64,000 nucleotides of DNA from Oligoflexia bacterium (GCA_903831745.1 CAIKYX010000261.1:4685-68684), one strand, 5' to 3'. Shown: positions 24,313-56,347, counted from the stretch's first letter. Numbers and translations: made by a program. The notes: a model not told the origin generated them from the sequence alone.

Positions 24313-24325
24313 AATCTTCCTATCA

Positions 24326-24637
24326 TCAATCTCTTAGCATTTGTATTTGATCAGAATCGACCGTTCGAAGCGTACGAAACAGCGCGATTACCAAGCCCAA
24401 GCCTACCGCAGATTCGGCGGCGGCAACCGTCATCACGAACAACGCGGTCAGATCGCCCTCTACCAAATGATGAATTCTCGAGAACGCCACAAAACACAAA
24501 TTCACCGAATTCAGCATCAGCTCGATGCTCATCAACATGATGAGCAGGTTCTTTCGGACAATTACGCCCAGAAGCCCGATGGTAAAAACAATCATCGCCA
24601 CAATCAAAAGCATCCAAGGCTGAAGTTCTGGAATCAT
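24326..24637 (-). CDS. nuoK: NADH-quinone oxidoreductase subunit K
   Basis: MSIELMLN and VAAAESAVGL (both conserved Glu). Confidence 0.96.
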   Translation of the reverse strand: MIPELQPWMLLIVAMIVFTIGLLGVIVRKNLLIMLMSIELMLNSVNLCFVAFSRIHHLVEGDLTALFVMTVAAAESAVGLGLVIALFRTLRTVDSDQIQMLRD

Positions 24638-26696: not shown

Positions 26697-28108
26697 GATA
26701 CGGCTCCCGCCAGTGCTTTTTTATTCATCGCAAGCATCAGTACCTCAGAAAAAGCCTTGCACCGACCTCCTGGCAACACAGCTCGTCTCAGTTTTTGTTC
26801 GATTCCCATGTGATTGATGACAGTTCCGTCTTTTTCGGTAAACGAAAAACCCGGTAGCACCAGACTCAGGCCCGCAGTATCGGCCGCGAGAAACACACCC
26901 ACTCCAATGACTTTCTTAGCCTTGATGGCTGGAAGCACCGCACGTCCACCCCGAAAAACAATGACCGTGTCTGTCGATGATTTTCCGGAATAGGCGGGGA
27001 TGCCCAACTTTTCAGCACCATTCAAGTTCGAGGTCTTGCTCTTCATCTTCAGGATGGTGTCTTGCGGTCCATCCTGCGCGGTCGACTCAACTCCCTGAGT
27101 TCCAAAATGTTCTACTGTGATTTTTGAAAGGCCTGCGAACTCTTTGATCGTCGCCATTTCTTCAAGCGTCAGATCCGTACCCACCAGAAACGAAACTTTC
27201 GAAGCCGAAATTTCAGCCCGGAAGCTTTCCATGGCAGAATCCCACGAGGCCTTGATCAATTCTCCGGCGTCTCGTTTCATCGGCTCGAGAACGCGGGTAG
27301 GGTCCTGGGTATAGCGATAATTGAATCGACCTTCATCACACATCCAGAATTTATTGATTTGTTGGTTTTCGATAGGAACACAGCGGTAGACCACGTTGCC
27401 TTCGTGTTGAACTTCGATATTACAACCTTTCGAACACCCTTCACAAACAGACGCGGTTTTCTTCAGCATCCATGCGCGTTTACGAAAGCGAAAATCCTTA
27501 AGCGTCAAAGACCCGGTCGGGCAAATATCGGAATAATTTCCGGCATACTCGGTTTGAAGTTGTTTGCCGTCGATAGTGGTGATGTCGATATTATTTCCGC
27601 GTTGAACCGCCACCATTTCATGAATGCCTGCAATCTCATCGCCAAAGCGGATACAGCGAGTGCAATGAATACAGCGATTCATGTTCTTTTCGATGACCGG
27701 CCCCATGTCGACATCGACAAACGTTCTTCGCTCTTCTGAATGGCGCATGGTCGCATTGCCGTAACCGAAGGAATTATTCTGAAGATCGCATTCTCCCGAC
27801 TTATCACAGATCGGACAATCGAGCGGGTGATTGAGGAGCAAAAACTCCATCGTGCCTGCTCGCCCTTTGATTACATTTTCTGAATTGGTCTTTACCACCA
27901 TGCCTTCGCCGGCCATGGTCGAGCACGCCGTCTGAAGTTTTGGCATCTTCTCGACTTCGACATAACACATGCGACATTGGGCAACGACACTGAGGCCCGG
28001 GTGATAACAAAATACCGGAATCTCGACTCCCGCGCGCGCAGCGACTTTGATCAGATTTTCTCCGGCCGTAAATTCGACTTCCTTACCGTCGATCGTGCAT
28101 TTAGGCAT
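26693..28108 (-). CDS. nuoG: NADH-quinone oxidoreductase subunit G (short, about 471 aa)
   Basis: FCYH...CRMC, HPLDCPICDKSGEC, RCIHCTRC, CPTGSL, CEGCSKGC...C. Start taken at MPKC. Confidence 0.95.
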   Translation of the reverse strand: MPKCTIDGKEVEFTAGENLIKVAARAGVEIPVFCYHPGLSVVAQCRMCYVEVEKMPKLQTACSTMAGEGMVVKTNSENVIKGRAGTMEFLLLNHPLDCPICDKSGECDLQNNSFGYGNATMRHSEERRTFVDVDMGPVIEKNMNRCIHCTRCIRFGDEIAGIHEMVAVQRGNNIDITTIDGKQLQTEYAGNYSDICPTGSLTLKDFRFRKRAWMLKKTASVCEGCSKGCNIEVQHEGNVVYRCVPIENQQINKFWMCDEGRFNYRYTQDPTRVLEPMKRDAGELIKASWDSAMESFRAEISASKVSFLVGTDLTLEEMATIKEFAGLSKITVEHFGTQGVESTAQDGPQDTILKMKSKTSNLNGAEKLGIPAYSGKSSTDTVIVFRGGRAVLPAIKAKKVIGVGVFLAADTAGLSLVLPGFSFTEKDGTVINHMGIEQKLRRAVLPGGRCKAFSEVLMLAMNKKALAGAVS

Positions 28109-29390
28109 ATTTCTTCTGTCCTTTGATATACGCTTCAAATTCTGGTCTGAATTTTTTTACAAAACTGATGACCGGGCCGGCAGCAGCGTCACCCAGTGCA
28201 CAAAGTGTTTTACCACCAATGTTCTGAGCCACTTCGACCAACAAATCTAGATCCTGCATTTTTGCTTCGCCCTTGATCATCTTATGAAGCAGGGATTCCA
28301 TCCAATGGCAGCCTTCACGACAAGGCGTGCACTGACCACAGGATTCATGGGCATAAAACTTGGTGATTCTGAGAAGAAGCTTAACCAGATCGGTATCTTC
28401 GTGAATAACCATGATCGCCGCAGACCCCATCATCGTGCCGATTTTTTGAAGCGGCTCTACATCGTAAATGACATCAATCTCGTCCGCAGTCAGAATCGGC
28501 GCCGATGAACCTCCTGGAATGACCGCCTTCAGGCGTTTATCACCCAGCATTCCGCCGCCCAGATCTTGAATGATCTGACGAAGGGTCATGCCACCCGCCA
28601 TCACCTCATATACTCCCGGTTTTTTTACGTGTCCCGAAAGCGAAATCAGGCGAGTTCCGCCCGACTTGTCGATCTTACCCATTTTTGCAAAACTTTCGCC
28701 GCTCATTCGCATGATAAATGGAATGTTCGCAAGCGACTCGACATTGTTAACCGCAGTTGGGCACGAAAATGCTCCTGAAGTTGCAGGAAATGGTGGTTTT
28801 ACCCGCGGTTCGCCGCGCTTACCCTCAAGAGAGTTCAAAAGCCCGGTTTCTTCACCACAGATATAGGCGCCCGCTCCGCGATGAACGGTAATATCGAGAT
28901 CAAACTTAGAACCCATGATGCCTTGGCCCAGATAACCCTTGGCATAAGCTTCTTGAATGGCTTCGTCGAGAAGCTTTGCTTCACGAACATATTCACCCCG
29001 AATATAGATATAGGCGTGCTTGCACCCAATCGCATAAGAACCAATCACGAGGCCTTCGATCAAAAGATGCGGAGTATAGCGCATGATCTGGCGATCCTTG
29101 CACGTTCCTGGTTCTGACTCATCGGCGTTGCAAACCAGATATTTTGGCTTTTCGCTTTGTTTGGGGATAAAGCTCCACTTCATACCGGTTGGAAAACCGG
29201 CGCCGCCTCGGCCTCGTAAATTTGCTTTCTTTACTTCATCAATGACCTGATCCGGTGTGAGCTCGGTAAGCACACGCTTCGCGGCCTGATACCCGTTCAT
29301 TTTTTCGAGATAATAAGAGAGTGCGCGATTTGAATCCTTAAAGAAATGCTGGATAAAAAGAGAGCCTTCGCTCGCTTTAACTTCACTCAT
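28101..29390 (-). CDS. nuoF: NADH-quinone oxidoreductase subunit F
   Basis: RGRGGAGFPTG, NADESEPG, GAGAYICGEET, ESCGQCTPCREG. Confidence 0.98.
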   Translation of the reverse strand: MSEVKASEGSLFIQHFFKDSNRALSYYLEKMNGYQAAKRVLTELTPDQVIDEVKKANLRGRGGAGFPTGMKWSFIPKQSEKPKYLVCNADESEPGTCKDRQIMRYTPHLLIEGLVIGSYAIGCKHAYIYIRGEYVREAKLLDEAIQEAYAKGYLGQGIMGSKFDLDITVHRGAGAYICGEETGLLNSLEGKRGEPRVKPPFPATSGAFSCPTAVNNVESLANIPFIMRMSGESFAKMGKIDKSGGTRLISLSGHVKKPGVYEVMAGGMTLRQIIQDLGGGMLGDKRLKAVIPGGSSAPILTADEIDVIYDVEPLQKIGTMMGSAAIMVIHEDTDLVKLLLRITKFYAHESCGQCTPCREGCHWMESLLHKMIKGEAKMQDLDLLVEVAQNIGGKTLCALGDAAAGPVISFVKKFRPEFEAYIKGQKKYA

Positions 29391-29878
29391 GAGCGCACCC
29401 CGCCTTCCTTGATTTTTTCGATATAGGCATTGAGCTTGTGAATATCCAATTCTTCGACGTAATCATCGTTCGCCATCATCGCGGGCGCAGCGGTACACGC
29501 ACCAAGGCACTCTTCTTCCGAAAGCGTAAAGAGACCGTCTTTGGTGGTTTCGCCACATTCGATTTCGAGTTTCTTTTCGGCAAATCCCATGAGCTCATCA
29601 GCACCGCGCAGGCAACAAGCCACATTGGTGCAGATCTTCAGATGCATTTTTCCGACGGGCTTAAGATTATACATCGTGTAGAAACTGGCGACCTCACGAA
29701 TTTGCGCCTCGTGCACACCGATGTACTCAGCAACCGCGGCCAGGCTTTCTTTTGGAAGCCAGCCATATTCCTTTTGTGCTTGATGAAGGGCCGGCAGAAT
29801 GAGTGCTTTCTTATTGGGATAGCGACTCTCGAGCTTCTTCATTTCTTCGTAAAACTTGTTTGATAATGGTGTACTCAT
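29387..29878 (-). CDS. nuoE: NADH-quinone oxidoreductase subunit E
   Basis: FYTMY, CTNVAC, ECLGAC. Confidence 0.96.
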   Translation of the reverse strand: MSTPLSNKFYEEMKKLESRYPNKKALILPALHQAQKEYGWLPKESLAAVAEYIGVHEAQIREVASFYTMYNLKPVGKMHLKICTNVACCLRGADELMGFAEKKLEIECGETTKDGLFTLSEEECLGACTAAPAMMANDDYVEELDIHKLNAYIEKIKEGGVRS

Positions 29879-29880
29879 GA

Positions 29881-31161
29881 TTATCGATCGAGCTCCCCGG
29901 CAATGACGTTGATACTTCCCAGTGCTGCCACCAAGTCAGCAATATACCCACCCTGAATCATCGGCGATAGGCCTTGATAATGCCAAAATGAGGGACTTCT
30001 AATCCGCATGCGATGAGCATTCACATCGCCTTTGCTGACGATATAAAAACCCAGTTCACCGTTTGCCGCTTCAAAAGCTGTGTAAGCCTCGCCCGGCGGA
30101 ACGTTGAAACCTGTCATGAAAAATTTAAAATGGTGAATCAAACCTTCCATTGTGTTGTACACGGCTGCTTTTTCTGGAATCCTGACTCGCTTGTCTTCGG
30201 ACCAAATCGGGCCACTTCGAATTTTGTCGCAACATTGTGAAATGATGTTCAGTGACTGCTTCATTTCTTCCATTCGCACGTAGTAGCGATCAAAAACATC
30301 TCCAACTCGCGCAATCGGCACATCGAAATCCATCTTGTCATAGAACATACAAGGTTGATCACGACGAAGATCGATATCGACTCCGGCTGCGCGCGCGTTC
30401 GGACCGGTAAAACTATAGTTCAAACACTGCTCTTTATTAAAGACTGCTACGTTCTTTGTGCGATTCAACCAGATGCGGTTGTCGGTGAGCAATCGATCCA
30501 TTTCATCGATGACGTCTCGGGTTTCCTTCACCCAGGCTTTTACGTCTTTTTCCCAACCTTCGGGCGCATCATACATCAGGCCGCCGATGCGGGTATAAGA
30601 CGTGGTCAGTCGAGCTCCACAGAGTTGTTCAATCAGCGTGTACGCTTTTTCGCGTTGATGATAGCCGTACAAGAAGTAAGAGAATGCCCCCAGGTCGACG
30701 GCGTTGATGCCGACGCAAATCAAATGATCAATGACACGCGCGAGTTCGGCGCAAATCATGCGAATCCAAGTGGCGCGCTCGGGAACCTCAACCCCCATCA
30801 ACCGCTCGACCGAAAGGGCGTAGGTAACGTTGTTGATCAATGACGAACAATAATTCAGACGATCGGTATAAACGATGAATTGATGATACGTGCGATTTTC
30901 GCCCAGCTTCTCTTTTGCCCGGTGGGTATAGCCGAATTCGCAGTACGATTTTTCGATGATCTCGCCATTCAACTTGGCCATACATCGAAACGCGCCATGC
31001 ATCGCAGGATGGGTCGGACCAATATTAACGATGACCCGTGAGTCTTCGAAAATATCGTCCGAGTCTTTTTTCAGAGAAACGTCGTAGTGCGAAGGAAAAC
31101 CCCAGCGGGCAATATCCAAAGGCACGTCCGGCTGAAGTGCGTTTTCTTTTTCATTTTTCAT
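29881..31161 (-). CDS. nuoD: NADH-quinone oxidoreductase subunit D
   Basis: GPTHPAMHG, DRLNY, GELGFY, C-terminal GELDR. Confidence 0.97.
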   Translation of the reverse strand: MKNEKENALQPDVPLDIARWGFPSHYDVSLKKDSDDIFEDSRVIVNIGPTHPAMHGAFRCMAKLNGEIIEKSYCEFGYTHRAKEKLGENRTYHQFIVYTDRLNYCSSLINNVTYALSVERLMGVEVPERATWIRMICAELARVIDHLICVGINAVDLGAFSYFLYGYHQREKAYTLIEQLCGARLTTSYTRIGGLMYDAPEGWEKDVKAWVKETRDVIDEMDRLLTDNRIWLNRTKNVAVFNKEQCLNYSFTGPNARAAGVDIDLRRDQPCMFYDKMDFDVPIARVGDVFDRYYVRMEEMKQSLNIISQCCDKIRSGPIWSEDKRVRIPEKAAVYNTMEGLIHHFKFFMTGFNVPPGEAYTAFEAANGELGFYIVSKGDVNAHRMRIRSPSFWHYQGLSPMIQGGYIADLVAALGSINVIAGELDR

Positions 31162-31718
31162 TTCAAGAGCTCCGGATCAATCGGTTCTGGATTCAAAAAC
31201 ACCTGGTACCCTCGAAGCGGGTAATCTTTTCTAAGCGGGTGACCTTCCCAGCGAACATCCATGAGAATTCGTCTCAGGTCGGGGTGTCCCTCGAAGCTGA
31301 TACCAAACATATCGTAAATTTCGCGCTCGGCCCAATTTGCGCCCGCCCAAAGCGGAATGAACGTGCCTATCTTTTCATTTTCCGACAAACGAACCTTGAT
31401 GCGAATGCGCGCTTTCGTTTCTGGATTCATCAGGTGAAACACAAGCTCAAAGCGGGGATCATTCTGCTCATCGACTGCCGTCATGTCGGTCAGAAAACTA
31501 TAATTGTATTTTTCCTTGAGGGTTTGCAGAAACGAATGGGCAATCGCTTTCTTTACGTAAAGAATCGGAAGATCGGTTGCATCTTGCCCAGGCTTCAGAA
31601 CTTTTTCGACTCCTGACGAGAACTCAGCCAGGATGGATTCAATCTGTTGATTCCAGATCTCACCGAATTTTTCAGGAAAATATCCGTAATTGCCGGGAAT
31701 CAGTGTTTTAACGTTCAT
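31158..31718 (-). CDS. nuoC: NADH-quinone oxidoreductase subunit C
   Basis: [32 protein letters not shown] 31718 has a GAGG SD and overlaps the nuoB end. Confidence 0.95.
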
Positions 31719-32250
31719 GACCCACCTCAAGTCCGAGACTTGCCGGACGTTTGCTGTCATTTCGAAGATTTTTCTCACGGTTTTGAGAATGGGTTTCGCC
31801 TCTTGCAATCATTTCTTGAAGGCGAAACAACGCATTCAAAAGTCCTTCAGGCGAAGGCGGACAACCCGGAACATAAACATCAACAGGCAAAACGGTGTCG
31901 ATTCCTTGGGTGACGCTATAGACATTGAAAATTCCACCGGACGAAGCGCACGCACCCATCGAAATGACCCATTTTGGATCGGCCATCTGATCGTAAATAT
32001 TTCTGAGGATGGGCGCCATTTTGAGATTAACGATACCGGCGCAAATCAAAAGATCGCTTTGGCGCGGAGAGAACCGCACCACTTCAGCTCCGAATCGGGC
32101 CATATCGTAGCCCGACGCCAAGGTAGACATCAGCTCAATGCCGCAGCAACTGGTTCCGAAGGGGAGTGGAAACAATGAGTTTTTCCGTGCCCAGCTGACG
32201 ACATGGTCTAATTTGGTGGTAAAAAAATCTGATGCTCCGTCTTTAGACAT
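31708..32250 (-). CDS. nuoB: NADH-quinone oxidoreductase subunit B
   Basis: [25 protein letters not shown]. Confidence 0.97.
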
Positions 32251-32263
32251 ATGTATTTCCTAC

Positions 32264-32626
32264 TTATTCCCAATTTAAAGCGCCTTTTCTGACGATATAG
32301 ACATAGCCCACAATCAGAACCGCTACGAAAGACAACATTTCAAGTAATACGAAATTTCCGGTCGACATGAATTTCTTAAAAACAACCGCCCAGGGATAAA
32401 AGAACACCGTCTCTACGTCGAACAACAAAAATAAAATGGCGACGAGGTAGAACTGAACCGATACGCGCTTGTGTTTTCCGGAGTCGACAGGCGGCACGCC
32501 ACATTCGACAGGAGAGTTTTTCATTCGATTGGGTAACTTGGGTCCGAGCAGTGATGTAATGACCAACACTGCTCCACCTACAGCGATCCCCGCTGACATC
32601 ATGACCAGCACAGGAAGGTAGTCCAT
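32264..32626 (-). CDS. nuoA: NADH-quinone oxidoreductase subunit A
   Basis: ECG loop, FLLFDVETVFFYPW, GALNWE. Confidence 0.96.
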   Translation of the reverse strand: MDYLPVLVMMSAGIAVGGAVLVITSLLGPKLPNRMKNSPVECGVPPVDSGKHKRVSVQFYLVAILFLLFDVETVFFYPWAVVFKKFMSTGNFVLLEMLSFVAVLIVGYVYIVRKGALNWE

Positions 32627-32673
32627 TTCCTTATCCTTTCCAAAAATTTCAAAAGGCTGTTTTTTTAGTCACC

Positions 32674-34038
32674 TTACCATAAATTAATAGCAGGGTGTTC
32701 ATTTAATAATGTGACCAGGGGCGCTCTCGACGCGGTTAAAAAGACGATGATGAACAAATAAAGCACAAAAAACAAGACTTCACCGGAAATCAGCTTCCGG
32801 TTCAAACCTGACTCACATTTGAATAATGCGATTTTTCCAACTTTTTGAATTGAAGAAGCGGTGGCACCGAACCAAGTAAGGGCAATCACAACGGCCAGGG
32901 GCAGAAGGTCAGCTGAAATCATTTCATGCATCAATCGAAAAAATTGATGTCCCATTTCAAGGGGCGGTGCACCGACCAAAGCGAAGATGGTGGCGACCAT
33001 CAGAAACTTGTTCTGATACTTCTCTTCTTGAAAAGAATAGCCCGCCAGCAGGAACGTGATCAAAAACGCCAGTGAAAGAATATAGAACGCCGGAAGCGAA
33101 TGGTCTCCTCCGAGTACCAACGAAAACCAGCCGATCCCACAGAGGCTTGGCAGAATCGCCGACAACCAATCCGCATGTCCAGTCGTGCGAATCGCGAGCA
33201 CCACGTAACGGATGGTGAAGCCAGAGAACAGCAGGCCTAGAAAAAGCTGAGCTGCGTTTTTTGACAAGAATTCGGAAGCGTTTAAGAAAGGAATACCAAT
33301 CCTCAGCCAAAACACCGATACCATGACAAAGGAAACCAGATTCATACAAGCCAAGGCAAACGGGCTTTTTCCTCTAAAGACATTACCATGGGTCATGACG
33401 GATCCCAGGGCGAACAAGATCACGCCCATTCCCAATAAGGAAAAGGACTTTTCATGATGAAGCTTGACCCATTCGATGTATTCCGAAAAATAAATCGACC
33501 CCGAGGACAAACTCGAAATCGTAAAGAACGCGAAAAACAGACCGAGTAAAAGTGAAAAACCAAACGCCTGTTGCCGAATGGTCTTAATCCAACCTTCGTG
33601 GAGCTTGCTCTCGACCAGAATCAAATTTCGTGCAGAAATAGCGGACCCAAGCCACGCAAGCGCGTAGAGCAAAATGCTGTTACTCATGAAGCCGAGGTCG
33701 AGAAACAAGCAAAGAAACAAAACAAATAGAAGCGCTCTTTGCTTTTCGAGGTAAACCATTCCTCTGTGCAAATGAATACTCAAAGAGCCCAAAATCAAAA
33801 GTAGGAGTGAAAAAATTCTGCCAAAATAGGTGACGGAATCAGAGACCAGGATTTTCTCAGGCGGTGAAAAATAGGCGAGATCGGTCCGCATCAGAAAAAA
33901 CGAAGCTCCGGCAAGTGTGAAGAGTGAAAACACGAGAGGCAACGAGCGATAAGTGACTGGCTTGAAATTCAAGGAAAGCATCGCCACAAAGAACTGCACT
34001 AAAATTAATAATTCCGGAATCCAGTCGAGAAGAATCAC
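32674..34038 (-). CDS. highly divergent NuoN-like membrane protein
   Basis: Last gene of the second cluster; multi-TM. SNSILLYALAWL ~ AKDLVVMFIALE, LVGAPPL ~ MAGMPL. GTG start overlaps the upstream stop (GTGA). Confidence 0.7.
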   Translation of the reverse strand: MILLDWIPELLILVQFFVAMLSLNFKPVTYRSLPLVFSLFTLAGASFFLMRTDLAYFSPPEKILVSDSVTYFGRIFSLLLLILGSLSIHLHRGMVYLEKQRALLFVLFLCLFLDLGFMSNSILLYALAWLGSAISARNLILVESKLHEGWIKTIRQQAFGFSLLLGLFFAFFTISSLSSGSIYFSEYIEWVKLHHEKSFSLLGMGVILFALGSVMTHGNVFRGKSPFALACMNLVSFVMVSVFWLRIGIPFLNASEFLSKNAAQLFLGLLFSGFTIRYVVLAIRTTGHADWLSAILPSLCGIGWFSLVLGGDHSLPAFYILSLAFLITFLLAGYSFQEEKYQNKFLMVATIFALVGAPPLEMGHQFFRLMHEMISADLLPLAVVIALTWFGATASSIQKVGKIALFKCESGLNRKLISGEVLFFVLYLFIIVFLTASRAPLVTLLNEHPAINLW

Positions 34039-35027
34039 AGATGGCCCACCCTTTCCAACCAGAAAAATGCCACTGCACAAAACAGCTGGGTCGCCACCAC
34101 GATATAGTAGCGAAATCGCACTGACGAGTTTGGCTCTCTCTCGCGGAACTCATGACCCACATTCAGGGCGAATGCCTGAAGCGTGAAGGCCACGATTAGA
34201 ACCCAGATCCAATTCACATTCAGAGCCACAATGCTTTTTAGTGAATAGAAGAGTCCCGAGCAAACCAGAAATCCAGGCATACCGGCCAAAAACACTCTCG
34301 AGAAAACCTCGGTCTTACGTCCTAATTGTTGCCCAAGCGAAATCAGAATGGGCGAAGTCATCATCACTACCGAAAGCGAAGCAATCGCCAAGCGAACCAA
34401 GGATTCTGAATCCACCATCAGGACAAACATGCTCAATCCCAACCAAGCTTGAGTCAGGTGAATCCACTTTGAACGCGACTTGCGCTTCATCAGGGATAAC
34501 CAGGAGCCTGCGAGGAAAGTGGATAACCCAAGAATGGTCAGAACCAGATCCCAAGTCTGGGTCCACTCGACTCTCATCTCGGGCTTGATTCTCATCAACA
34601 CATTCAGCGTCGCTAGCGCTGGCAAGAGGCTCGAGTACAAATAAGTGCGCTGGGTGACTCCATGTTCTTGCCTTTCAAAAATCAAAGACCAAAGAACCGT
34701 AGGCAAAGACAAGACTAACCCGATGAAAATCAGTAAGGAAGAGAGCGGACTTCCCTGAAGCGCAACGCCGAACAAGCTCACAAAAAGAAAGAAGCACCGA
34801 AGTGAAAAGTTCATTTGTGACAGGACCGCGTTCGAGCGCTTTCCTTGGCGGCTAGAAATCAAATACGAAGCCATGGTCAGCAGAATCAATAGAAGAATAC
34901 TGACTTCCATCGAACCCGAAAAAACCGCTCCTGCTGCAAGCGCGATCGGACCAAGCCCCACTGGGGTTGACGTCACCAACCACGCAATGACCATCACTGC
35001 ACTGAGAAAGCTCCAATCAAAATTCAA
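34035..35027 (-). CDS. highly divergent, shortened NuoM-like membrane protein (330 aa)
   Basis: GGAGG SD. HLTQAWLG ~ YSSISHLG, LAGMPGFLVCSGL ~ VALPGTMNFVGE. Position between L-like and N-like. Confidence 0.65.
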   Translation of the reverse strand: MNFDWSFLSAVMVIAWLVTSTPVGLGPIALAAGAVFSGSMEVSILLLILLTMASYLISSRQGKRSNAVLSQMNFSLRCFFLFVSLFGVALQGSPLSSLLIFIGLVLSLPTVLWSLIFERQEHGVTQRTYLYSSLLPALATLNVLMRIKPEMRVEWTQTWDLVLTILGLSTFLAGSWLSLMKRKSRSKWIHLTQAWLGLSMFVLMVDSESLVRLAIASLSVVMMTSPILISLGQQLGRKTEVFSRVFLAGMPGFLVCSGLFYSLKSIVALNVNWIWVLIVAFTLQAFALNVGHEFREREPNSSVRFRYYIVVATQLFCAVAFFWLERVGHL

Positions 35028-35868
35028 AGGAACCTCCTTTTTCGATCAGAACCACACCCACCCATAACACCACCATGATCAAGGTCCACCAAAAAATAGA
35101 TTGATAGGCCGGGGCAATCTCACCTGAATGTTCACGCTCGGCTTTTTCGAGCCAAAAGCGGCCAAATGTAGCTCGGTCACCGATCGCGCGGAAGGCGCGC
35201 TCACTTGAAGCCTGGATTCGATTCAACCATCCTTCAAAATCAGGGGTTTTAAAGTGGTTCCAAATGAAGATTCCAAGAAGCACGGTGAGAATCGCGCCTC
35301 CTGCAATGACCAATGGCTCACTCTCTGCGATCGTCATGACTGCCGGTCGAAAAGAAAGCAGCACGCCCACCAACAAGAAGGGCTCTAGCCATTTTTGAAT
35401 CAATTCCTGTTTTTTAACCTTGAGTGCCTTCAGTGATTCTTTGATCACCACCGACCCGACAGCGGTTCCTAAAACCACTTCCATGAACTCGGGTTGCGCA
35501 AAATAGCTTCGAGAAAGAATCAAAGCGACGACCACTCCCAAACGATCGAGTCCTCCAGAATAAGAGACCCCCAAGACCCCGAAGATCGTAAAAAACTCTC
35601 GGAAGGGTGCCGGTGCTGCCATGCCGATCAATAACAGTAAAATGGATACAGAATCTTTTACTCTGAAGGGGGTCGGAAGATTTTCGCGGGCTCTCGACCA
35701 GACCACGAGTGTCGCGGTCAGAATCGCAAAGACGTCGCCCTTTAAAAACGCACCGATGGCGATTGCAATAAACGGCAAAACAGTGCGCTCACGCACCAAG
35801 CCTAGAAGTGCGGCGAGAAAGAAATAGAGTGAAATCTGATTCAGCTGTAACCAATCATTCAGATTCAT
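35017..35868 (-). CDS. highly divergent, shortened NuoL-like membrane protein (283 aa)
   Basis: LQLNQISLYF ~ LRLDSLSAVF, FRVKD ~ NRIGD, C-terminal amphipathic stretch followed by HSG...Y and a final TM. Confidence 0.6.
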   Translation of the reverse strand: MNLNDWLQLNQISLYFFLAALLGLVRERTVLPFIAIAIGAFLKGDVFAILTATLVVWSRARENLPTPFRVKDSVSILLLLIGMAAPAPFREFFTIFGVLGVSYSGGLDRLGVVVALILSRSYFAQPEFMEVVLGTAVGSVVIKESLKALKVKKQELIQKWLEPFLLVGVLLSFRPAVMTIAESEPLVIAGGAILTVLLGIFIWNHFKTPDFEGWLNRIQASSERAFRAIGDRATFGRFWLEKAEREHSGEIAPAYQSIFWWTLIMVVLWVGVVLIEKGGSFEF

Positions 35869-36094
35869 GGTCGAGTTGAACTTCCTTTCTCAATACCATC
35901 ATGGCGCCAACCAGAATGATGGCGGTCAAAAAAACGGCTCCACCCAAAATCAAAGTGTCGTGACTTCTGAGCGCCAGAAGAGCATCTAAAACCAAGGCCA
36001 AACGCGCAACCCCAATAGAAACTCGGGGACCATCTTCAGCCATGAGAAGCTCAAACAAAGCATAAGCTAATAATAGAATCACAAACCAAATCAT
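35855..36094 (-). CDS. NuoK-like 3-TM protein lacking both conserved Glu
   Basis: 79 aa, three hydrophobic segments, ATGA overlap with J-like. Assignment mainly by position and size. Confidence 0.55.
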   Translation of the reverse strand: MIWFVILLLAYALFELLMAEDGPRVSIGVARLALVLDALLALRSHDTLILGGAVFLTAIILVGAMMVLRKEVQLDHESE

Positions 36095-36459
36095 CGTTTT
36101 CTTCTCTCCGTGATCAGGGCAATCAACGCTAGCGCCACTACCAAGGCCATTCCCAGATAAACAGGAAGCAACGGGCCATTCCAAAGATCTTCAGGCGACA
36201 GATCGACCTTCTTCTCGGGCTCTGGTCCGATCAGAGAAAGACCCACACTTACCGAAAGAATGAGCGCCAGAAATGCGGATTGCACCATTTTCAAGCGAGA
36301 CGCTCCCCGCGGACGGGTCCCTAAAAGCAAGAGAGTCTTCCAAAATTGGGCACCATAAAAGAGTCCGAGCAAAACAAGGAAGACTCCGAATGCAGGAACC
36401 TTCATGCCGAGGACGGCGGCGGTCGCAATCAACAGTGCCAGATCAAAAAAAACAATCAC
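36091..36459 (-). CDS. NuoJ-like membrane protein (122 aa)
   Basis: Hydrophobic, FYGA motif, LW...LLP before the last TM. GTGA overlap with I-like. Confidence 0.55.
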   Translation of the reverse strand: MIVFFDLALLIATAAVLGMKVPAFGVFLVLLGLFYGAQFWKTLLLLGTRPRGASRLKMVQSAFLALILSVSVGLSLIGPEPEKKVDLSPEDLWNGPLLPVYLGMALVVALALIALITERRKR

Positions 36460-36848
36460 CGTCGCCCCCTTCCAAAGCTCATCTTCAAATCATTCGGACT
36501 GAGTACGGCAGGCTGAATCTCTTTGGTCTGAACCAGAGCGTTTGGATCGCAAACATCGACACAGAACCCGCAAAAAATGCATTGTGAAAAATCGATATCG
36601 AATTTCGACACCCAAGGACGATGGCTTTTTTCGCTCTCCTGATATTCAAGTTCGATGCATTGCGTGGGACAAACTTTCACGCACTCTTCGCAAGCCGTGC
36701 ATTTTTCGATCGAATTAAAAATCAATCCTCGGGCCCGAGCCGGAAAATCGTCTTTTCCGCGCGATGAAACTGGGTCCGGATAAAACTCCGTATCAATTTT
36801 TCGGATTTCGCCTTCATTCAAAAGATGCTTCATTACCCGCTTAAGCAT
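36456..36848 (-). CDS. NuoI-like 2x[4Fe-4S] ferredoxin subunit
   Basis: YPD, RARG, CTACEECVKVCP, FDIDFSQCIFCGFCVDVC. ATG 36848 overlaps the H-like stop. Confidence 0.88.
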   Translation of the reverse strand: MLKRVMKHLLNEGEIRKIDTEFYPDPVSSRGKDDFPARARGLIFNSIEKCTACEECVKVCPTQCIELEYQESEKSHRPWVSKFDIDFSQCIFCGFCVDVCDPNALVQTKEIQPAVLSPNDLKMSFGRGRR

Positions 36849-37614
36849 GACTTCCCCCATAAGATACGAGGCCAAAAATGATCGCTGAAAACAACCAAAG
36901 CGCAATGGCCATCGGCAAGAGATAGACGAGGGATATCCTGAATAAGTCTTGCTTCGAATAAGCCGGAAAATACCGACCGAGCAGGCGGCACGCGACGAAG
37001 AGAACGGCGCTTTTCAGATGACCATCCAGAATAAAGAGATTGCCCTTCAAGAACAAATGAGTGGCAACCATGCACCAGCCATAAAACCTTGCCGACTGAA
37101 GCCAACTTTGTTCGCGCACGCCCGATTGAAACGGGTATTCGAGAAACAGAATCATTCCGGCAACCAAAAACAATGGCACAAACACCAAATGAAGAGGCGT
37201 CCATTCGTTTTGAATGAAAACACTCATGGCACTGAGGACGCCGAGCAGAGAACCAATCAGGAAAAATACCTGCGATCGATCCGCATTAATTCTGGCCTCG
37301 ACTTCATTGTTGAGCGGCGAAGCGGTCACCAACACCAGAGAATTGAGTGCCAGGTAGATTAAAAACACAGTCACAAAATTGTATTCGAGAAAAAACACCA
37401 GGCTGAGTTGAAGTACCAATACCGCCCAGGACTTCCACGCTCTCGAGGCGACCAGCTCTGACCATGAATCAACCCACAATTGATATAAAAACCCAGGAAA
37501 AGTAGCCCCTTTGCCCACGCGAGATTGATGGGTCACGTTCGTGCGCTCACTGATGCCGTAAACCAGGAAAGAAATCGGAAAAAAAATCAGAATCGAGATC
37601 AAAGTAGAAATCAT
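36841..37614 (-). CDS. divergent, shortened NuoH-like membrane protein (257 aa)
   Basis: ISERTNVTHQSRVG ~ VERRGSALLQNRLG, QLWVD ~ QAACD, EYPFQ ~ RLPFD. Confidence 0.7.
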   Translation of the reverse strand: MISTLISILIFFPISFLVYGISERTNVTHQSRVGKGATFPGFLYQLWVDSWSELVASRAWKSWAVLVLQLSLVFFLEYNFVTVFLIYLALNSLVLVTASPLNNEVEARINADRSQVFFLIGSLLGVLSAMSVFIQNEWTPLHLVFVPLFLVAGMILFLEYPFQSGVREQSWLQSARFYGWCMVATHLFLKGNLFILDGHLKSAVLFVACRLLGRYFPAYSKQDLFRISLVYLLPMAIALWLFSAIIFGLVSYGGSHA

Positions 37615-38636
37615 CGATCAATCTCCGTCACCAGGAAACCCAGGCTTTTTAAAATCAGAGGAGTGTCTTCAAAATATTCACTTTCGAGGGCAGGAATGAT
37701 GGCTCCCAAAATGGCGTCGGACGGAGTTCCGACCTTCATTGACTCGACTTTAAGATCTTCGCCGAGCTTCAACTCAAGCGCCCATTCACCTCGCCAGCAA
37801 ACCAAATCGCGAGTGCTCGCGGGCTTGATTCGTTTATTCCAACCTTCTACCAAAAATGCACCCTTATGGGGAGTTGCAACCAAAGCCATGATTTCGTCCG
37901 CACAACTGCGGGTGCAATTCAGCACAAACACCAAGCGCGACTCGACTTGACTGACCAGGCCTACATGAGTCGTCTGCACAGACGTTTCACTGACAAATCC
38001 GAACTTGCCTCCATCGACTACCGTGCCAATTGCTTGAAGGCGGTTTTGAAACGTATGTGACCAGAGAAACATCGACTGAATCCGGTCGAAATCTGCGAGG
38101 TAATTTTTAATCCAGATCTCTATCCGCTCGAGGAATCCTTCGGTAATATCGTATCGAACGCCGCCTGCGCGGACGAAACAATATCCATACCGTGAGCCCG
38201 TCAAAAGCTCGGTCAAATCGAGAAGCTCCTCACGGTGTTTGAGGAGAATATTCTTCAGGATCAATAGCCCCATCGCTTCAGCCATGACCGCCAGATACTT
38301 AAGCATCGAACTGAACTCACTCACCGTGGTCGATACTTCTCGAATCCAAACGGCACGGTCTTCGACACTCCATCCGAGACACTCTTCTACTGCTTCAGAA
38401 AAAATCCGATCGAGCAGGACTGCGCTTTCGGGCTCGATTCGAGAGAACCAATGGCGCGCTTGAACAAAAGAAGTTCCCAATATTTTTTTCTCTACATCTT
38501 TTTTCGCGTAGCCGAATTCATGAGCTCCGCTGACCATTTGATCTCCATGGAGATCAATCGAGAGCCGCATGGGGCCGGGCAACCAATGATGAATCGGACC
38601 TAAGTTCAGGCGAGACTGAATTTTGGGATCGTTCAT
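37611..38636 (-). CDS. NuoD-like protein without quinone-binding residues or NiFe ligands
   Basis: NLGPIH, EFGY, HREELLDL..LTGSR...GGV, RGE, TPS, terminal EIDR. No CxxC. ATGA overlap with B-like. Confidence 0.85.
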   Translation of the reverse strand: MNDPKIQSRLNLGPIHHWLPGPMRLSIDLHGDQMVSGAHEFGYAKKDVEKKILGTSFVQARHWFSRIEPESAVLLDRIFSEAVEECLGWSVEDRAVWIREVSTTVSEFSSMLKYLAVMAEAMGLLILKNILLKHREELLDLTELLTGSRYGYCFVRAGGVRYDITEGFLERIEIWIKNYLADFDRIQSMFLWSHTFQNRLQAIGTVVDGGKFGFVSETSVQTTHVGLVSQVESRLVFVLNCTRSCADEIMALVATPHKGAFLVEGWNKRIKPASTRDLVCWRGEWALELKLGEDLKVESMKVGTPSDAILGAIIPALESEYFEDTPLILKSLGFLVTEIDR

Positions 38637-39010
38637 TTTTGTCCCTCCCGCAGCGCCAGCAATCCATTCATGATGGCTTCGGGTCGCGGAGGGCATCCGG
38701 TCACATAAACGTTCACGGGAACTGACTCGTCCCGCTTGAGTGGAAAGAGTCCTCCGCCACAGGCACAGGTGCCAATCGCCAGCACATATTTCGGTGATTT
38801 CATCGCCGCGTAGTAAGTTTCGACTTCTTTTTGAAGTTTTTCGTTCAGAGTTCCCTGAATGATCAACAAATTTGCTTCATCATGATGATCCGCAGGCCGG
38901 CACCCCAGGCGCTCAAGGTCATATCGACTGGATTCGGTCTGCATCCAGTCGTCTCCACAGCAGGAAATGCCTACTCTAAAGTATTTGAGTGTCGGTTTAG
39001 TGGTTTTCAT
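38633..39010 (-). CDS. minimal NuoB-like [4Fe-4S] subunit (125 aa)
   Basis: SCCG, YDLERLG, PKYVLAIGTCACGGG, VTGCPPRPEA. Confidence 0.88.
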   Translation of the reverse strand: MKTTKPTLKYFRVGISCCGDDWMQTESSRYDLERLGCRPADHHDEANLLIIQGTLNEKLQKEVETYYAAMKSPKYVLAIGTCACGGGLFPLKRDESVPVNVYVTGCPPRPEAIMNGLLALREGQK

Positions 39011-39218
39011 CCCGGTCTTTCTTCAGAAAGTTCTGTGCACACAAAAAGAAAGACAAAAAGACTACCAACATGACCAAAATCGCGATTAAATAGGAAATAA
39101 TTTTGATCTCCTTTGAGATAAAAATCGGAAGCGAAAACAAAAGCGGAATCCAGAGGAAAATGATTCCCTGGGACAATTGTGTTGTCTTGATCTCAAACGG
39201 CAGTATTTTCTTGAACAT
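38997..39218 (-). CDS. small 2-TM protein, probable NuoA remnant
   Basis: 73 aa; KILPFE resembles the NuoA loop; first gene of the cluster, overlapping B-like by 14 nt. Confidence 0.5.
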   Translation of the reverse strand: MFKKILPFEIKTTQLSQGIIFLWIPLLFSLPIFISKEIKIISYLIAILVMLVVFLSFFLCAQNFLKKDRDENH

Positions 39219-39232
39219 AACTTCTTATACAG

Positions 39233-39262
39233 AGGCTACTTGAAAAGGAAAGGGTGAGTCAA
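39233..39262 (-). promoter_or_regulatory. candidate sigma70 promoter for the divergent nuo cluster
   Basis: Minus strand TTGACT-N18-TAGCCT in the 43-nt divergent gap; the -35 touches the mfd ATG. Confidence 0.35.
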
Positions 39263-42200
39263 TGGTCGGGAACCAGATCGAGCTAAAATTTAACTCGCTC
39301 CTCGCCCATGCTTTCTCGGTTTTGAAGCTTGCAACCCAAGCGGGACCGAAGAGCCCGCCCCTCATTGTGATCCTCATTCACTCAAAAGAGCTGCTTGAAG
39401 ATTACTTTTCACTGCTGCAAACGCTGATCAATGCAGATGGCCATGCCGTTTCACTTCACCAATGGCAAGCATGGGAACATCCACCGTTCTCGCCCGTTGC
39501 TTCGTCCATCACGCAGAAAATAGATCGCCTGAAGACCCTTTACTCGATTACGGGAGCTAAGACACCGACTATTGTCCTGGCGACCGTCGAAGCCTGGATT
39601 CAACCCACCGTTCCGAAGGAAAACTATCAAAGCAATCATTTGGTACTCGAATTGAATCAAGATGTGGGCTCTCGAGAACAGCTTCGAGAACGCCTGCAAG
39701 CCTTGGGGTACTTGAAAGCGGATGTTGTAGACGAGCCCGGTCAATATGCCGTAAGAGGAGAGATCCTAGACCTCTTTATTCCGCATGCTCCAGCACCTTA
39801 CCGGATTGAATTTTTTGACACGGTCGTTGAGGCCATTCGAACGTTTCATCCCGAAACCCAAAGAACCCAGAGTTCAAACGAGCCGATTCGAAGTCTCGAG
39901 ATCACTCCTGCCGAAGAAATTCTCTTTCCGTGGAAAGATTTCTCGGTAGTTCTAGAACGGGTAAAGGCCTATTCCGACCAGCGGCAAATCTCGAGAAAGA
40001 TCAGGGATCCGATTTTCGAGAACATTCGGAACGGCTTTTTGCCCGATCACTTTAGGACCTGGATTCCGTTTATTCATGAAAAATGCGGGGCACTTCTCGA
40101 TTATCTCCCCGAACACACGTCTTTAATCACTTTCGAGCCCGAACAACTCAAAATCGAGCTCACCCAAACCCTGGATTATCTCAAAAAAGAGGAAGTTCGC
40201 TATTCTCAACCTCACTGGATCACTCCCGATTTTTCTCAACTCTATTCTCGGGCAGAGGCGTTGCTCGCGCAAGCCATTCAGTCGTCGCGTTTCATCATTC
40301 GAAACGCCCCACTATCTGATCGGGCGCTCGCTCCGATTCCGTCTGAACCCGTTTCCGAGCTCAGGCTCGATGAAAAGGCCGTTTACGAGTGGCTTGAGGA
40401 CGGCTTCTTTGTCTGGATTGGAAGCCGTGGGATTTCTCATCAAGAGCGCCTGAAATTTATTTTAAAGCGGGTGCTCAGCAAGCCAGGCCTGAAATTTCTA
40501 GCGGACGACCCTCGCGAATCGCTGCAGTTCCTGACCGAAAAAACCATCATCTTATCGGAAGACCTTTTTCTCGGAAAGTCGCAGGCCGCAGTCAAGAAAA
40601 AGAGCACCCCACACGTGTTTCCGAAAACAGAGGGCCTGCCTTCCGAAGAACTCACTCACCTCAGTGATCTTTCGATCGGTGATTTTGTAGTTCATGCCAC
40701 CCACGGTGTCGGAAAATATGTGGCCCTTCAGGAACTTCAGTCCCAAGGAAGAAACCTGGGAGAATACCTTCTGATCGAATATTCGGGTGGTGACCGATTG
40801 TTTCTTCCGGTCTATCGCTTAAACACAATTCAGCGTTATGTGGGTGCGGGTGGAAACCCATCACTCGACAAACTCGGAACCGCCCAATTCGAGAAAGCGA
40901 AACAAAAAGCGCGTGACTCGGCCCGAAAACTGGCAATCAACCTGATCGAAATCTACGCGAAACGAGAACTCCTGAAGGGCGTTCCCTTCGCACCCGAAGA
41001 CCAGAGCTATTTCGATTTCGTAGACGAGTTCGAATTTCAGGAAACCGAAGGGCAACTCAAGGCCACACAGGACACACTTCATGACTTAGAGAGCGGAAAA
41101 TTGCTCGATCGTCTGGTGTGCGGAGACGTGGGATTCGGAAAAACCGAAGTGGCCATGCGGGCCGCCTTTCAAGCAGTGCAAAGCGGATACCAGGTGGCAC
41201 TTTTGGTACCCACCACCTTGCTTGCCTTTCAACACGAACAATCGTTTCGTAGGCGTTTTAAGAATTTTCCGGTTCAGATTGAATCGATTTCGCGCTTTAA
41301 ATCTAAGAAAATGCAGCAAGAGGTGCTGAAGTCGCTTGCGGAGGGAAAAATCGACATCCTGGTCGGAACCCATCGCCTGATTTCGAAAGATGTAGAATGG
41401 AACAAGCTCGGACTCTTGATCATTGATGAAGAACATCGCTTTGGGGTAGAGCACAAAGAAAAGATCAAGGCAGTGCAGGCCAACACCCATACCCTGACCC
41501 TGACGGCCACGCCGATTCCAAGAACCCTGAATATGGCTATTTCGGGACTAAAAGATATCAGCTTGATCAAGACGCCACCCACGAATCGTCAGCCGATTAA
41601 GACTTTCGTCTCTCACGACTCTGAAGAGTTGATCAAATCTGCGCTCGAAAACGAGCTCGCGCGAGGCGGCCAGGTGTTTTATCTCTACAACCGGGTTGCA
41701 TCAATCTTCAAGAAAGCGGAAGAGCTTCAAAAACTCGTTCCCCAGGCAAAAATCATCGTTGCGCACGGACAAATGAAAGAAGACGAAATTGAATCAAAAA
41801 TGATCGAATTCTATCAGGGTCAGGCGCAAATACTGGTGTGTACCACCATCATCGAATCCGGAATCGATGTGCCGAATGCCGGAACCATTATCATTCAAAA
41901 TGCGGATCGCCTGGGATTGGCCCAGCTCTACCAGATCCGCGGCCGGGTGGGACGGAGTCACCGAAAAGCGTTTGCCTATTTATTAGTCGATGAAGAAAGA
42001 ACACTTACCCAGGAAGCAAAAATGCGCCTCGATGTGCTTCAACGGTTCATCGAACTCGGAAGTGGCTTTCAGATCGCCTCGTACGATCTCGAAATCCGCG
42101 GCGGCGGTAACTTTCTCGGTGCAGAACAATCGGGTCACATCGCCTCAGTGGGACTCGATCTGTTTACCGAACTTCTCGAAGAAGCGGTACAAGAGCTGCG

Positions 42201-42732
42201 TGGTCAAAAAATTGACATCGATGAGCGGCATTTTGAGCCAGAAATTCAAGTTCCGGTAACTTGCGAGATTTCTCCAAAACTGATCGAAGACCCAAAAATG
42301 CGGCTCTCATTTTATCGAAAACTTTCAAATGCCCGAACGGATGCCCAATTGGATTCACTTCACGAAGAGCTGGTCGATCGCTTTGGCGAGCTTCCAGAAG
42401 AGGTGACCAATCTTTTCTGGCTGATCCGAATTAAAAACCTACTCAAGCGTGTAGGCGTTGAACAACTTTCGACCTCACCGGTTCGAAGCTCACTCACTGT
42501 CAGAAAAACCACGCTAATCGACGTAAACGAGGTGATGAAACTCTATACTGGGCCGCCAAAAATCCGCGATCCGCGAGTTTCGATCACTCCAGACTCGAAA
42601 ATCGTGCTTCAGGCTCCGTTTCAGTCGATGCAGTCACTTCTTTTCGAGCTTGAAGGTTTTTTTAAGAAAATCGCCCCAAAAGCATTTGAAACGATTGAAA
42701 ACCCAAAAAGCACTGATAGACTAAGCTTATGA
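39262..42732 (+). CDS. mfd: transcription-repair coupling factor
   Basis: AVRGEILD, VVHATHGVG (RID), CGDVGFGKTEVA, IIDEEHRFG, TATPIPRTL, QIRGRVGRS, DLEIRGGG. Confidence 0.97.
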   Translation: MVGNQIELKFNSLLAHAFSVLKLATQAGPKSPPLIVILIHSKELLEDYFSLLQTLINADGHAVSLHQWQAWEHPPFSPVASSITQKIDRLKTLYSITGAKTPTIVLATVEAWIQPTVPKENYQSNHLVLELNQDVGSREQLRERLQALGYLKADVVDEPGQYAVRGEILDLFIPHAPAPYRIEFFDTVVEAIRTFHPETQRTQSSNEPIRSLEITPAEEILFPWKDFSVVLERVKAYSDQRQISRKIRDPIFENIRNGFLPDHFRTWIPFIHEKCGALLDYLPEHTSLITFEPEQLKIELTQTLDYLKKEEVRYSQPHWITPDFSQLYSRAEALLAQAIQSSRFIIRNAPLSDRALAPIPSEPVSELRLDEKAVYEWLEDGFFVWIGSRGISHQERLKFILKRVLSKPGLKFLADDPRESLQFLTEKTIILSEDLFLGKSQAAVKKKSTPHVFPKTEGLPSEELTHLSDLSIGDFVVHATHGVGKYVALQELQSQGRNLGEYLLIEYSGGDRLFLPVYRLNTIQRYVGAGGNPSLDKLGTAQFEKAKQKARDSARKLAINLIEIYAKRELLKGVPFAPEDQSYFDFVDEFEFQETEGQLKATQDTLHDLESGKLLDRLVCGDVGFGKTEVAMRAAFQAVQSGYQVALLVPTTLLAFQHEQSFRRRFKNFPVQIESISRFKSKKMQQEVLKSLAEGKIDILVGTHRLISKDVEWNKLGLLIIDEEHRFGVEHKEKIKAVQANTHTLTLTATPIPRTLNMAISGLKDISLIKTPPTNRQPIKTFVSHDSEELIKSALENELARGGQVFYLYNRVASIFKKAEELQKLVPQAKIIVAHGQMKEDEIESKMIEFYQGQAQILVCTTIIESGIDVPNAGTIIIQNADRLGLAQLYQIRGRVGRSHRKAFAYLLVDEERTLTQEAKMRLDVLQRFIELGSGFQIASYDLEIRGGGNFLGAEQSGHIASVGLDLFTELLEEAVQELRGQKIDIDERHFEPEIQVPVTCEISPKLIEDPKMRLSFYRKLSNARTDAQLDSLHEELVDRFGELPEEVTNLFWLIRIKNLLKRVGVEQLSTSPVRSSLTVRKTTLIDVNEVMKLYTGPPKIRDPRVSITPDSKIVLQAPFQSMQSLLFELEGFFKKIAPKAFETIENPKSTDRLSL

Positions 42733-56335: not shown

Positions 56336-56347
56336 AACTTTATCCTT

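Follow-up and report, generated by a model that had tools for sequence, protein, structure and literature searches.

Why would a bacterium keep a second set of complex I genes, stripped of catalytic residues, directly ahead of its canonical nuo operon? This question is raised by a 64,000-nucleotide (nt) stretch of DNA from an Oligoflexia bacterium (GCA_903831745.1, CAIKYX010000261.1:4685-68684), hereafter the window, whose host is an uncultured freshwater member of the Bdellovibrionota. At positions 32674-39218 the window carries ten nuo-like open reading frames (ORFs), here called the shadow cluster and written with primes (A' to N'). Our best reading of the evidence is that these ORFs specify a genuine membrane complex, maintained by selection, that descended from an 11-subunit complex I paralogue lacking NuoEFG. 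We know of no natural example of a complete complex I paralogue that keeps its iron-sulfur (Fe-S) chain while discarding quinone chemistry and all pump residues.

The Fe-S ligands are retained, and the quinone-site and pump residues are lost

The ligands of three 4Fe-4S clusters (N6a, N6b, and N2), amounting to 12 cysteines, were invariant in the window's genus. All eight cysteines of I', which form two CxxCxxCxxxC motifs (N6a/N6b), were found in 13/13 genus sequences and in 68/68 others, and the four N2 cysteines of B', including the consecutive pair, in 13/13 genus sequences and in 55 to 57 of 57 others.

The quinone site was examined with the NuoD register fixed on T. thermophilus Nqo4 (chain 2fug_4), in which His38, Tyr87, and Asp139 are described as supplying protons for quinol formation (PMC6465577). 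Each of the three residues was present in all 50 canonical NuoD sequences. Among 59 shadow D sequences of other lineages, His38 did not occur (Pro in 49), Tyr87 occurred once (Pro in 49), and Asp139 did not occur; in the 13 sequences of the window's genus, proline stood at both the His38 and the Tyr87 position in all 13, and Asp139 was replaced by Arg, Ala, or Gln. Altogether, not one of the 72 shadow D sequences had a complete triad, with a single Tyr87 being the only triad residue left.

Pump positions were located through the window's own canonical subunits, and the key Lys/Glu residues of the antiporter-like subunits, the NuoK Glu pair, and the NuoH acidic loop are regarded as important in the complex I literature. 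The canonical operon of the window keeps His38/Tyr87/Asp139 in NuoD, both Glu residues of NuoK, the NuoH loop, and the Lys/Glu residues of NuoL, NuoM, and NuoN. Full-size members of the shadow family already lack both membrane Glu residues of NuoK, the acidic loop between transmembrane helices (TM) 5 and 6 of NuoH, and the acidic pair of NuoA. Their NuoL is without the TM5 Glu, TM7 Lys, and TM12 Lys/Asp; their NuoM is without the TM5 Glu, TM8 Lys, and TM12 Glu and has Arg for the TM7 Lys; and their NuoN has Gln for the TM5 Glu and has lost the TM7 Lys. Similarly, in the window the acidic TM5-6 loop motif is absent from H' and both membrane Glu residues are absent from K', M' misses its N-terminal ~110 amino acids (aa) together with key charged residues, and N' is substituted at the TM5 Glu, TM7 Lys, and TM12 Lys positions. 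The pump positions were thus substituted or deleted in the aligned window subunits; L' cannot be aligned.

Shadow D of a sister order lacks His38 and Asp139 and keeps Tyr87, and its K and M are likewise degenerate, which points to an old and stepwise loss of these residues. The sequence-only reading had taken intact coupling despite extreme divergence as a sign of selection for a new role. The genes are indeed under selection, as described below, but the quinone-site and pump residues are already lost in the full-size relatives, and the new role therefore predates the shrinkage seen in the window.

In a NuoD tree, the canonical sequences, including the order's own, formed one clade apart from but next to the shadow forms. 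Among the 150 representatives nearest to the shadow-D profile, 60 had the canonical His/Tyr, and the top-scoring ones were almost all non-canonical. A deep-branching representative had 117 short NuoD neighbours, 108 of which carried His38 and Tyr87. Ten of these neighbours had source names: the sole non-canonical one was a Bdellovibrionales record, and the nine from other phyla held Tyr87 in 9/9 and His38 in eight, the ninth being a partial record without that region.

All ten shadow genes are under purifying selection

For the two closest genus pairs, at a synonymous divergence (dS) of 0.1-1.6, the ratio of nonsynonymous to synonymous divergence (dN/dS) was 0.00-0.07 over all ten shadow genes (0.05-0.06 for L'), compared with 0.00-0.06 for canonical A-D. 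An unsaturated pair of full-size clusters (dS 0.34-0.52) gave 0.01-0.17 for the shadow genes, with the highest values in C (0.17), A (0.16), J (0.13), and L (0.11), and 0.05-0.10 for canonical A-D. All ten frames were open in 12/12 cluster-bearing genus genomes where the contig covers them. The ten genes are under strong purifying selection. Since dN/dS was 0.00-0.07 in every one of them, simple decay was excluded, and the earlier proposal that the intact frames reflect selection rather than decay held up.

Mean within-genus identity was 73% for I', 70% for B', 63% for A', 54% for D', 48% for H', 46% for K', 41% for N', 40% for M', 39% for J', and 38% for L'; the canonical NuoD of the genus relatives is 83-87% identical to that of the window. 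Columns conserved at 90% or more made up 56% of I' and 55% of B', 9% of K', L', and M', and 9-21% of the membrane subunits generally. This gradient shows that constraint is concentrated on the Fe-S subunits, yet every gene is constrained. Some charged membrane residues were also conserved in the genus, for example, R26/E27/R59/D72 of L' and E9/D53/D67/K99 of N'.

Homology of the ten ORFs to Nuo subunits

All ten ORFs had been taken for Nuo paralogues from the sequence alone. This stood for B', D', I', H', M', and N', but not for L', and profile-profile comparison did not carry it for K' and A'. The Pfam and NCBIfam library models recognized three of the ten ORFs: B' (PF01058, 2.9e-21; NF005012, 8.3e-34), D' (PF00346, 2.1e-15, N-terminal part only; NF004739, 7.6e-34, far below the model cut-off), and I' (TIGR01971, 9.2e-21, below the model cut-off). 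The other seven (A', H', J', K', L', M', and N') had no meaningful match among these models. In a phmmer search against Protein Data Bank (PDB) sequences, D' matched the 49-kDa subunits of complex I (1.5e-21). Shadow and canonical subunits are only 20-30% identical.

Genus alignments of 9-12 orthologues were compared with less diverged relatives by profile-profile alignment (hhalign). B', D', and I' each matched the cognate subunit at 100%, D' over its full length. H' matched full-size NuoH (96.4%, E value 1.4e-9) and no other subunit, N' matched NuoN (94.6%, E value 6.6e-8), and M' matched NuoL best (95.8%), followed by NuoM (72.7%) and NuoN (68.9%). The best partner of J' was NuoJ, with a weak match (E values 3.8e-3 to 4.6e-3), and K' reached an E value of 4.8e-3 in one comparison and gave no signal in another. 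A' had no significant hhalign match to NuoA; it is alignable to TM2-TM3 and the C-terminal basic motif of NuoA, was found in 12/12 cluster-bearing genus genomes, and still has TM1 in its 109-aa orthologue from the genus member G006.

No similarity between L' and NuoL was detected, even when the longer forms from G006 (466 aa) and from the sister genus G018 (414 aa) served as intermediates. There was no usable match in Pfam/NCBIfam or in the ESM Atlas, whose own L' model had a pLDDT of 0.50, and the best E value of the L' profile against PDB sequences was 0.49. The L' alignment also matched none of the longer proteins searched (817-2330 aa), a size range above the 500-800 aa in which NuoL falls. 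The C terminus of L' consists of a TM, an amphipathic helix (hydrophobic moment, muH, up to 0.63 at residues 210-235), and another TM. This layout recalls the lateral helix and anchor of NuoL and is no proof of kinship.

By these comparisons B', D', and I' are certain Nuo homologues, and H', M', and N' are supported as such. The assignment of J', K', and A' draws on synteny and weak signals, and the "L-like" label of L' denotes its position only.

The window cluster is the reduced end of an 11-gene family

NuoD matches were found in all 41 genomes of the window's order that were searched; 36 had at least two, typically ~10 kb apart. In other families of the order, the upstream copy is a complete 11-gene cluster, A-B-C-D-H-I-J-K-L-M-N, directly followed by canonical nuoA-B-C-D-E. 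In one such full-size relative (G040), nine of the ten scanned subunits passed the Pfam cut-offs (B, C, D, H, J, K, L, M, and N; A did not, and I was outside the scan).

The NuoI motif of the family retrieved 80 public-genome loci, 74 of which were titled as a Bdellovibrionota taxon and six of which had generic names. Of the 69 loci with both shadow B and shadow D, 48 have the C gene and the complete 11-gene set, and 21 have B abutting D. Median sizes in the C-bearing loci were 146 aa for A, 157 for B, 378 for D, 359 for H, 199 for I, 181 for J, 96 for K, 646 for L, 502 for M, and 490 for N. Canonical nuoA followed shadow N in 57/57 loci holding both, and the median distance between the two genes was near 37 nt. 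The magnetotactic metagenome-assembled genomes (MAGs) FG-1 and FG-2, which are placed in GTDB class, order, and family UBA1018 (PMC13200544), account for two of the 80 loci; from this we infer that UBA1018 is the order of the window.

An even sample of 150 genomes of the phylum, 25 from the window's order and 125 from outside it, was then scanned for the family NuoI. It was detected in 24/25 genomes of the order (E values of at most 6.5e-47) and, as weak matches (1e-24 to 2e-29), in 3/125 genomes outside. Two of these three belong to a sister order of the same class, in which mfd is followed by a 12-gene nuo-like cluster and then by canonical nuo. The sister-order loci reach 12 genes through an extra membrane gene of ~454 aa between L and M (6033-7394 of L121 and 5749-7113 of L122, both minus strand), which is also without the usual charged residues.

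The window cluster is a reduced end-member of an 11-gene, NuoEFG-less complex I paralogue that has stood in tandem with canonical nuo since before the window's order arose. A MAG artefact was rejected on the grounds that the same arrangement recurs in dozens of independent assemblies, and recent horizontal transfer was rejected because the GC content is that of the surroundings and the layout is class-wide. Split shadow genes (L, M, H, or D in two or three ORFs) were observed in the MAG loci L064, L075, L077, L086, L098, and L105, and two of these loci, L064 and L075, also have a split canonical nuoB or nuoD; these could be assembly errors or occasional pseudogenization.

Loss of NuoC, shrinkage, and a clean deletion

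Only the window's genus has the short version: 12 of 16 relatives and the window carry it, and in those 12 it fills a slot between mfd and canonical nuoA-B-C-D-E. An intermediate is found in the sister genus G018, whose L, M, and N have 414, 353, and 389 aa. In both genera NuoC is lost and A, B, D, H, J, L, and M are shortened. One genus member, G006 (L029, 547-7940, minus strand), is less reduced, with an A of 109 aa that keeps a third TM, an H of 311 aa, and an L of 466 aa, and may represent a transitional stage from the full-size to the reduced forms. The ten proteins of the window sum to 2,194 aa, compared with roughly 3,300 aa in full-size relatives, and are thus about one third smaller.

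In a tree of shadow B and D rooted on canonical B and D, a FastTree topology taken without inspection of branch support, the reduced clade had as its sister a clade that lacks NuoC and keeps L, M, and N at full size, which suggests that C was lost first and that shrinkage came later. Three more C-less loci stood elsewhere in this tree. The sequence-only reading had treated the absence of C as a distinguishing trait; C is indeed absent from the window cluster, but NuoC-less versions with full-size L, M, and N exist in other lineages.

In the four remaining species of the genus, which have no shadow cluster, 98-111 nt separate mfd from canonical nuoA. Their grouping in a single clade inside the genus (support 1.00) indicates one clean deletion of the cluster.

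The shadow cluster is probably co-transcribed with canonical nuo

The 47-nt spacer between N' and canonical nuoA held no terminator-like site in a generic promoter/terminator scan, a scan that called no more sites than in shuffled sequence and called no promoter at 39219-39261. A conserved -10-like element, TATGATACT, was found upstream of nuoA only in the four cluster-less genomes; in cluster-bearing genomes that region holds merely a Shine-Dalgarno (SD)-like stretch. Given the overlapping genes, the terminator-free spacer, and the restriction of TATGATACT to cluster-less genomes, the shadow cluster is probably co-transcribed with canonical nuo. The spacer between A' and mfd (40-43 nt) contains a -35-like TTGACT, 18 nt, and TAGCCT in 11/12 genus sequences. 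Because the same bases double as the SD (ribosome-binding site) of mfd on the opposite strand, the cause of this conservation is ambiguous.

Comparison with known complex I-like systems

The sequence-only reading held that the cluster fits neither canonical complex I, nor the ordinary 11-subunit enzymes, nor group 4 hydrogenases, nor Ehr complexes, and the membership comparisons agreed. Complex I-like enzymes of 11 subunits without NuoEFG (NUO11, "ancestral") are described, for example, from Desulfitobacterium hafniense (PMC11238625; nomenclature in PMC4758237). The shadow family shares with them the absence of the NADH module, the nuo gene order, the tandem-Cys N2 site of NuoB, and the two 4Fe-4S motifs of NuoI; its full-size members carry exactly those 11 genes, and full-size shadow D is nearest to T. 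thermophilus Nqo4 (1e-77). It differs in lacking the quinone triad and pump residues, whereas nine NUO11-type NuoD sequences from other phyla keep Tyr87, and in standing always in tandem to a canonical 14-gene operon. The window form further differs in its subunit set of ten genes, since it has no NuoC and an unrecognizable 283-aa orphan replaces the ~640-aa NuoL; by subunit set and quinone site it falls outside the 11-subunit enzymes.

With canonical complex I (Nuo14) the shadow cluster shares the superfamily, the subunit order, and the N2 and N6a/N6b ligands, but subunits C, E, F, and G are missing from it, and of the catalytic residues it retains only the Fe-S ligands, those of the quinone site and of the pump positions being gone alike. 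Some genomes are known to carry two sets of complex I genes, and the second isozymes described are complete 14-subunit enzymes of another clade (PMC4453560, Spero et al. 2015).

Ehr complexes are described as having group 4 hydrogenase affinity and lost NiFe ligands (PMC6349859). Like Ehr and group 4 [NiFe] hydrogenases, the shadow cluster combines a large-subunit homologue without NiFe cysteines with antiporter-like membrane subunits. Unlike in group 4 hydrogenases, D' has no Cys at either CxxC site and its C terminus ends as in complex I NuoD, and full-size shadow D is closer to Nqo4 (1e-77) than to Mbh (9e-42) or formate hydrogenlyase (4e-31). Unlike in Ehr, B' has the complex I-type consecutive Cys pair, the order is that of nuoA-N, and the antiporter-like charged residues are lost. 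A hydrogenase or Ehr identity was rejected because the NiFe ligands are absent and D is closer to Nqo4, with Ehr compared by its description in PMC6349859 only.

The literature covered, which did not include a supplementary figure of PMC4758237 on Bdellovibrio nuo clusters, held no description of a tandem, catalytically stripped complex I paralogue. To this extent the earlier view of an undescribed system stands, but the system is not particular to this genome, as it derives from the 11-gene cluster found across the order and its sister order.

Gene layout and surroundings

The ten minus-strand ORFs overlap by 4-14 nt and tile 32674-39218 completely (6545/6545 bases covered), confirming the contiguous arrangement with ATGA/GTGA junctions reported earlier (Table 1). 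The longest stop-free run is 491 codons; in 200 shuffles, this value averaged 141 and did not exceed 259. ORF starts were refined by orthologue alignments and junction inspection; the longest ORF at D', for example, has 361 aa and begins 20 codons too early. SD-like purine-rich stretches precede D', I', J', K', M', and N', in line with the several SDs noted before. As had also been noted, C, E, F, and G are absent from the cluster: B' runs directly into D' with an overlap, E, F, and G are found only in the downstream canonical operon, and the assembly (91% complete) has a single Complex1_30kDa (PF00329) match, which is canonical nuoC, and two 49-kDa subunit matches.

Table 1. Features of the window in and around the shadow cluster
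Feature	Position	Strand	Junction with next shadow gene	Description
A'	38997-39218	-	14-nt overlap	73 aa, 2 predicted TM; NuoA-position gene
B'	38633-39010	-	ATGA	125 aa; NuoB homologue, N2 cluster ligands, N-terminally truncated
D'	37611-38636	-	ATGA	341 aa (refined start); NuoD homologue without quinone-site triad, internal deletion of ~45 aa
H'	36841-37614	-	8-nt overlap	257 aa, ~5 TM; reduced NuoH homologue (supported)
I'	36456-36848	-	GTGA	130 aa, start ATG 36848; NuoI homologue, both 4Fe-4S motifs
J'	36091-36459	-	ATGA	122 aa, 4 TM; NuoJ-position gene
K'	35855-36094	-	14-nt overlap	79 aa, 3 TM, start ATG 36094; NuoK-position gene without the two membrane Glu
L'	35017-35868	-	11-nt overlap	283 aa, ~5 TM; orphan membrane protein in NuoL position
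M'	34035-35027	-	GTGA	330 aa, ~9 TM; truncated antiporter-like subunit
N'	32674-34038	-		454 aa, ~13 TM, start GTG 34038; antiporter-like, NuoN type
Spacer, N' stop to canonical nuoA	32627-32673	-		47 nt; SD-like stretch only; nuoA starts at ATG 32626
Canonical 14-gene nuo operon, nuoA to nuoN	19571-32626	-		Assigned from ORFs and blast labels
Canonical NuoG	26693-28138	-		Just 481 aa; N-terminal Fe-S domains and a fragment of the molybdopterin-like domain (Pfam)
TPR-repeat protein	16755-19544	-		929 aa; directly downstream of canonical nuoN, same strand
Spacer, A' to divergent mfd	39219-39261			43 nt
mfd-like gene	39262-42732	+		1156 aa; conserved upstream neighbour of the cluster
gyrA and gyrB	53831-59795	-
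Three ORFs following gyrA and gyrB	59773-63937

A strongly positive AT skew (0.19-0.30) coincides exactly with the membrane-subunit genes of the two minus-strand nuo clusters (20001-26000 and 32001-38000) and probably reflects T-rich hydrophobic codons. From the presence of gyrA and gyrB, the window may lie near the chromosome origin.

What the shadow complex may do

The only conserved chemistry of the cluster is its chain of three 4Fe-4S clusters. We therefore favour a non-energy-conserving Fe-S relay or sensor that would be made alongside complex I and would carry out neither quinone reduction at the canonical site nor proton pumping; in our judgement the chances for and against this function are about equal. 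Under this proposal, a catalytically disabled complex I scaffold would anchor the Fe-S module in the membrane. A docked module or a ferredoxin-like donor would feed electrons in at I', and N2 would hold them or pass them on; the complex would serve either to relay electrons without conserving energy or to sense redox or Fe-S status. One long transcript would give rise to both this complex and complex I. The ideas put forward from the sequence alone (an Fe-S wire, a sensor, a scaffold, and a partner of complex I) are all live candidates.

Several points weigh against this proposal. The loss of known catalytic residues is not the same as the loss of activity, as other residues could take over, and the residue calls in the most diverged subunits depend on alignment quality. 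L', K', and A' are at most putative Nuo homologues, so that part of the proposed membrane arm is an assumption. With the quinone site gone, no acceptor for N2 is apparent, and the relay therefore has no known endpoint. The deletion of the whole cluster shows that its function is dispensable in the four-species clade. Finally, the sequencing runs that contain this stretch are four DNA runs from one lake-water metagenome study, with no RNA run among them, and only one of the four contains most of the stretch.

Among the alternatives, we consider it unlikely that the shadow proteins are partners of canonical complex I, serving as swap-in subunits of a hybrid, uncoupled enzyme, as an assembly or stabilizing scaffold, or as a regulator that shares NuoC and NuoEFG. 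Catalytically dead paralogues often act on their active relatives, and here the two clusters are in tandem in every locus that holds both and probably share a transcript. The lack of C in a genome with a single nuoC would also suit shared subunits, as would the fact that shadow C (dN/dS 0.17) and shadow L (0.11) are among the least constrained genes of the full-size form. Nevertheless, a complete parallel set in which every member is selected argues for a separate assembly rather than single swap-ins, the 20-30% identity between shadow and canonical subunits makes mixed interfaces doubtful, and a pure scaffold would not need invariant Fe-S ligands.

Quite improbable, in our view, is a complex that still converts energy through a non-canonical acceptor site and another ion path, for instance as a ferredoxin-driven enzyme or with another quinone or membrane acceptor. 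The collapse of the quinone triad throughout the shadow D sequences speaks against it, as does the joint loss of the charged residues of NuoK, NuoH, NuoA, and L/M/N; in the window, moreover, the N-terminal segment of B' is gone, helices are missing from H', A', L', and M', and few membrane-subunit columns are conserved. These losses have to be set against an intact Fe-S chain, a complete complex I gene order under strong purifying selection, the genus-conserved charged residues of L' and N', and the existence elsewhere of 11-subunit relatives described as working ferredoxin-linked enzymes (PMC11238625).

It is very improbable that the cluster is what remains of a nuo operon, once duplicated or acquired and now decaying, with frames open by chance: high within-genus divergence (38-40% mean identity in L', M', and J'), lost catalytic residues, missing or shortened subunits, and the deletion in one clade would all fit decay, but the open frames in all 12 cluster-bearing genomes, dN/dS of 0.00-0.07 at dS up to 1.6, the preserved overlapping start/stop junctions, and a degenerate state that is at least as old as the class, beyond the survival time of unselected frames, do not.

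The favoured relay or sensor has a broader version, which we offer tentatively and think somewhat doubtful. The whole class may carry a "pseudo-complex I" that abandoned pumping and quinone reduction long ago, persisted as a selected Fe-S membrane scaffold co-expressed with complex I, and was pared to a ten-subunit core in the window's genus.

Implications for the complex I superfamily

For annotation, the consequence is direct. Shadow proteins appear in databases as NADH-quinone oxidoreductase subunits or hypothetical proteins, and because of labels such as "NADH-quinone oxidoreductase subunit D," metabolic reconstructions of these freshwater Bdellovibrionota count two complex I enzymes, of which probably only one conserves energy. 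If the "pseudo-complex I" reading is true, the complex I superfamily would gain a new functional class, which might sense redox or Fe-S status, regulate complex I, or assist in its assembly, and the shadow complex would be a natural experiment on the minimal architecture that keeps the N6a-N6b-N2 chain membrane-bound. From a paralogue of this kind one could learn to what other uses the architecture can be put and which parts are needed just for assembly and cluster holding. Furthermore, the lineages form a graded series, from the sister order in which Tyr87 is kept, through the window's order in which the triad is lost and the NuoC-less clade, to the genus with shortened A, B, D, H, J, L, and M, and this series may show the stepwise dismantling of a large respiratory machine under selection.

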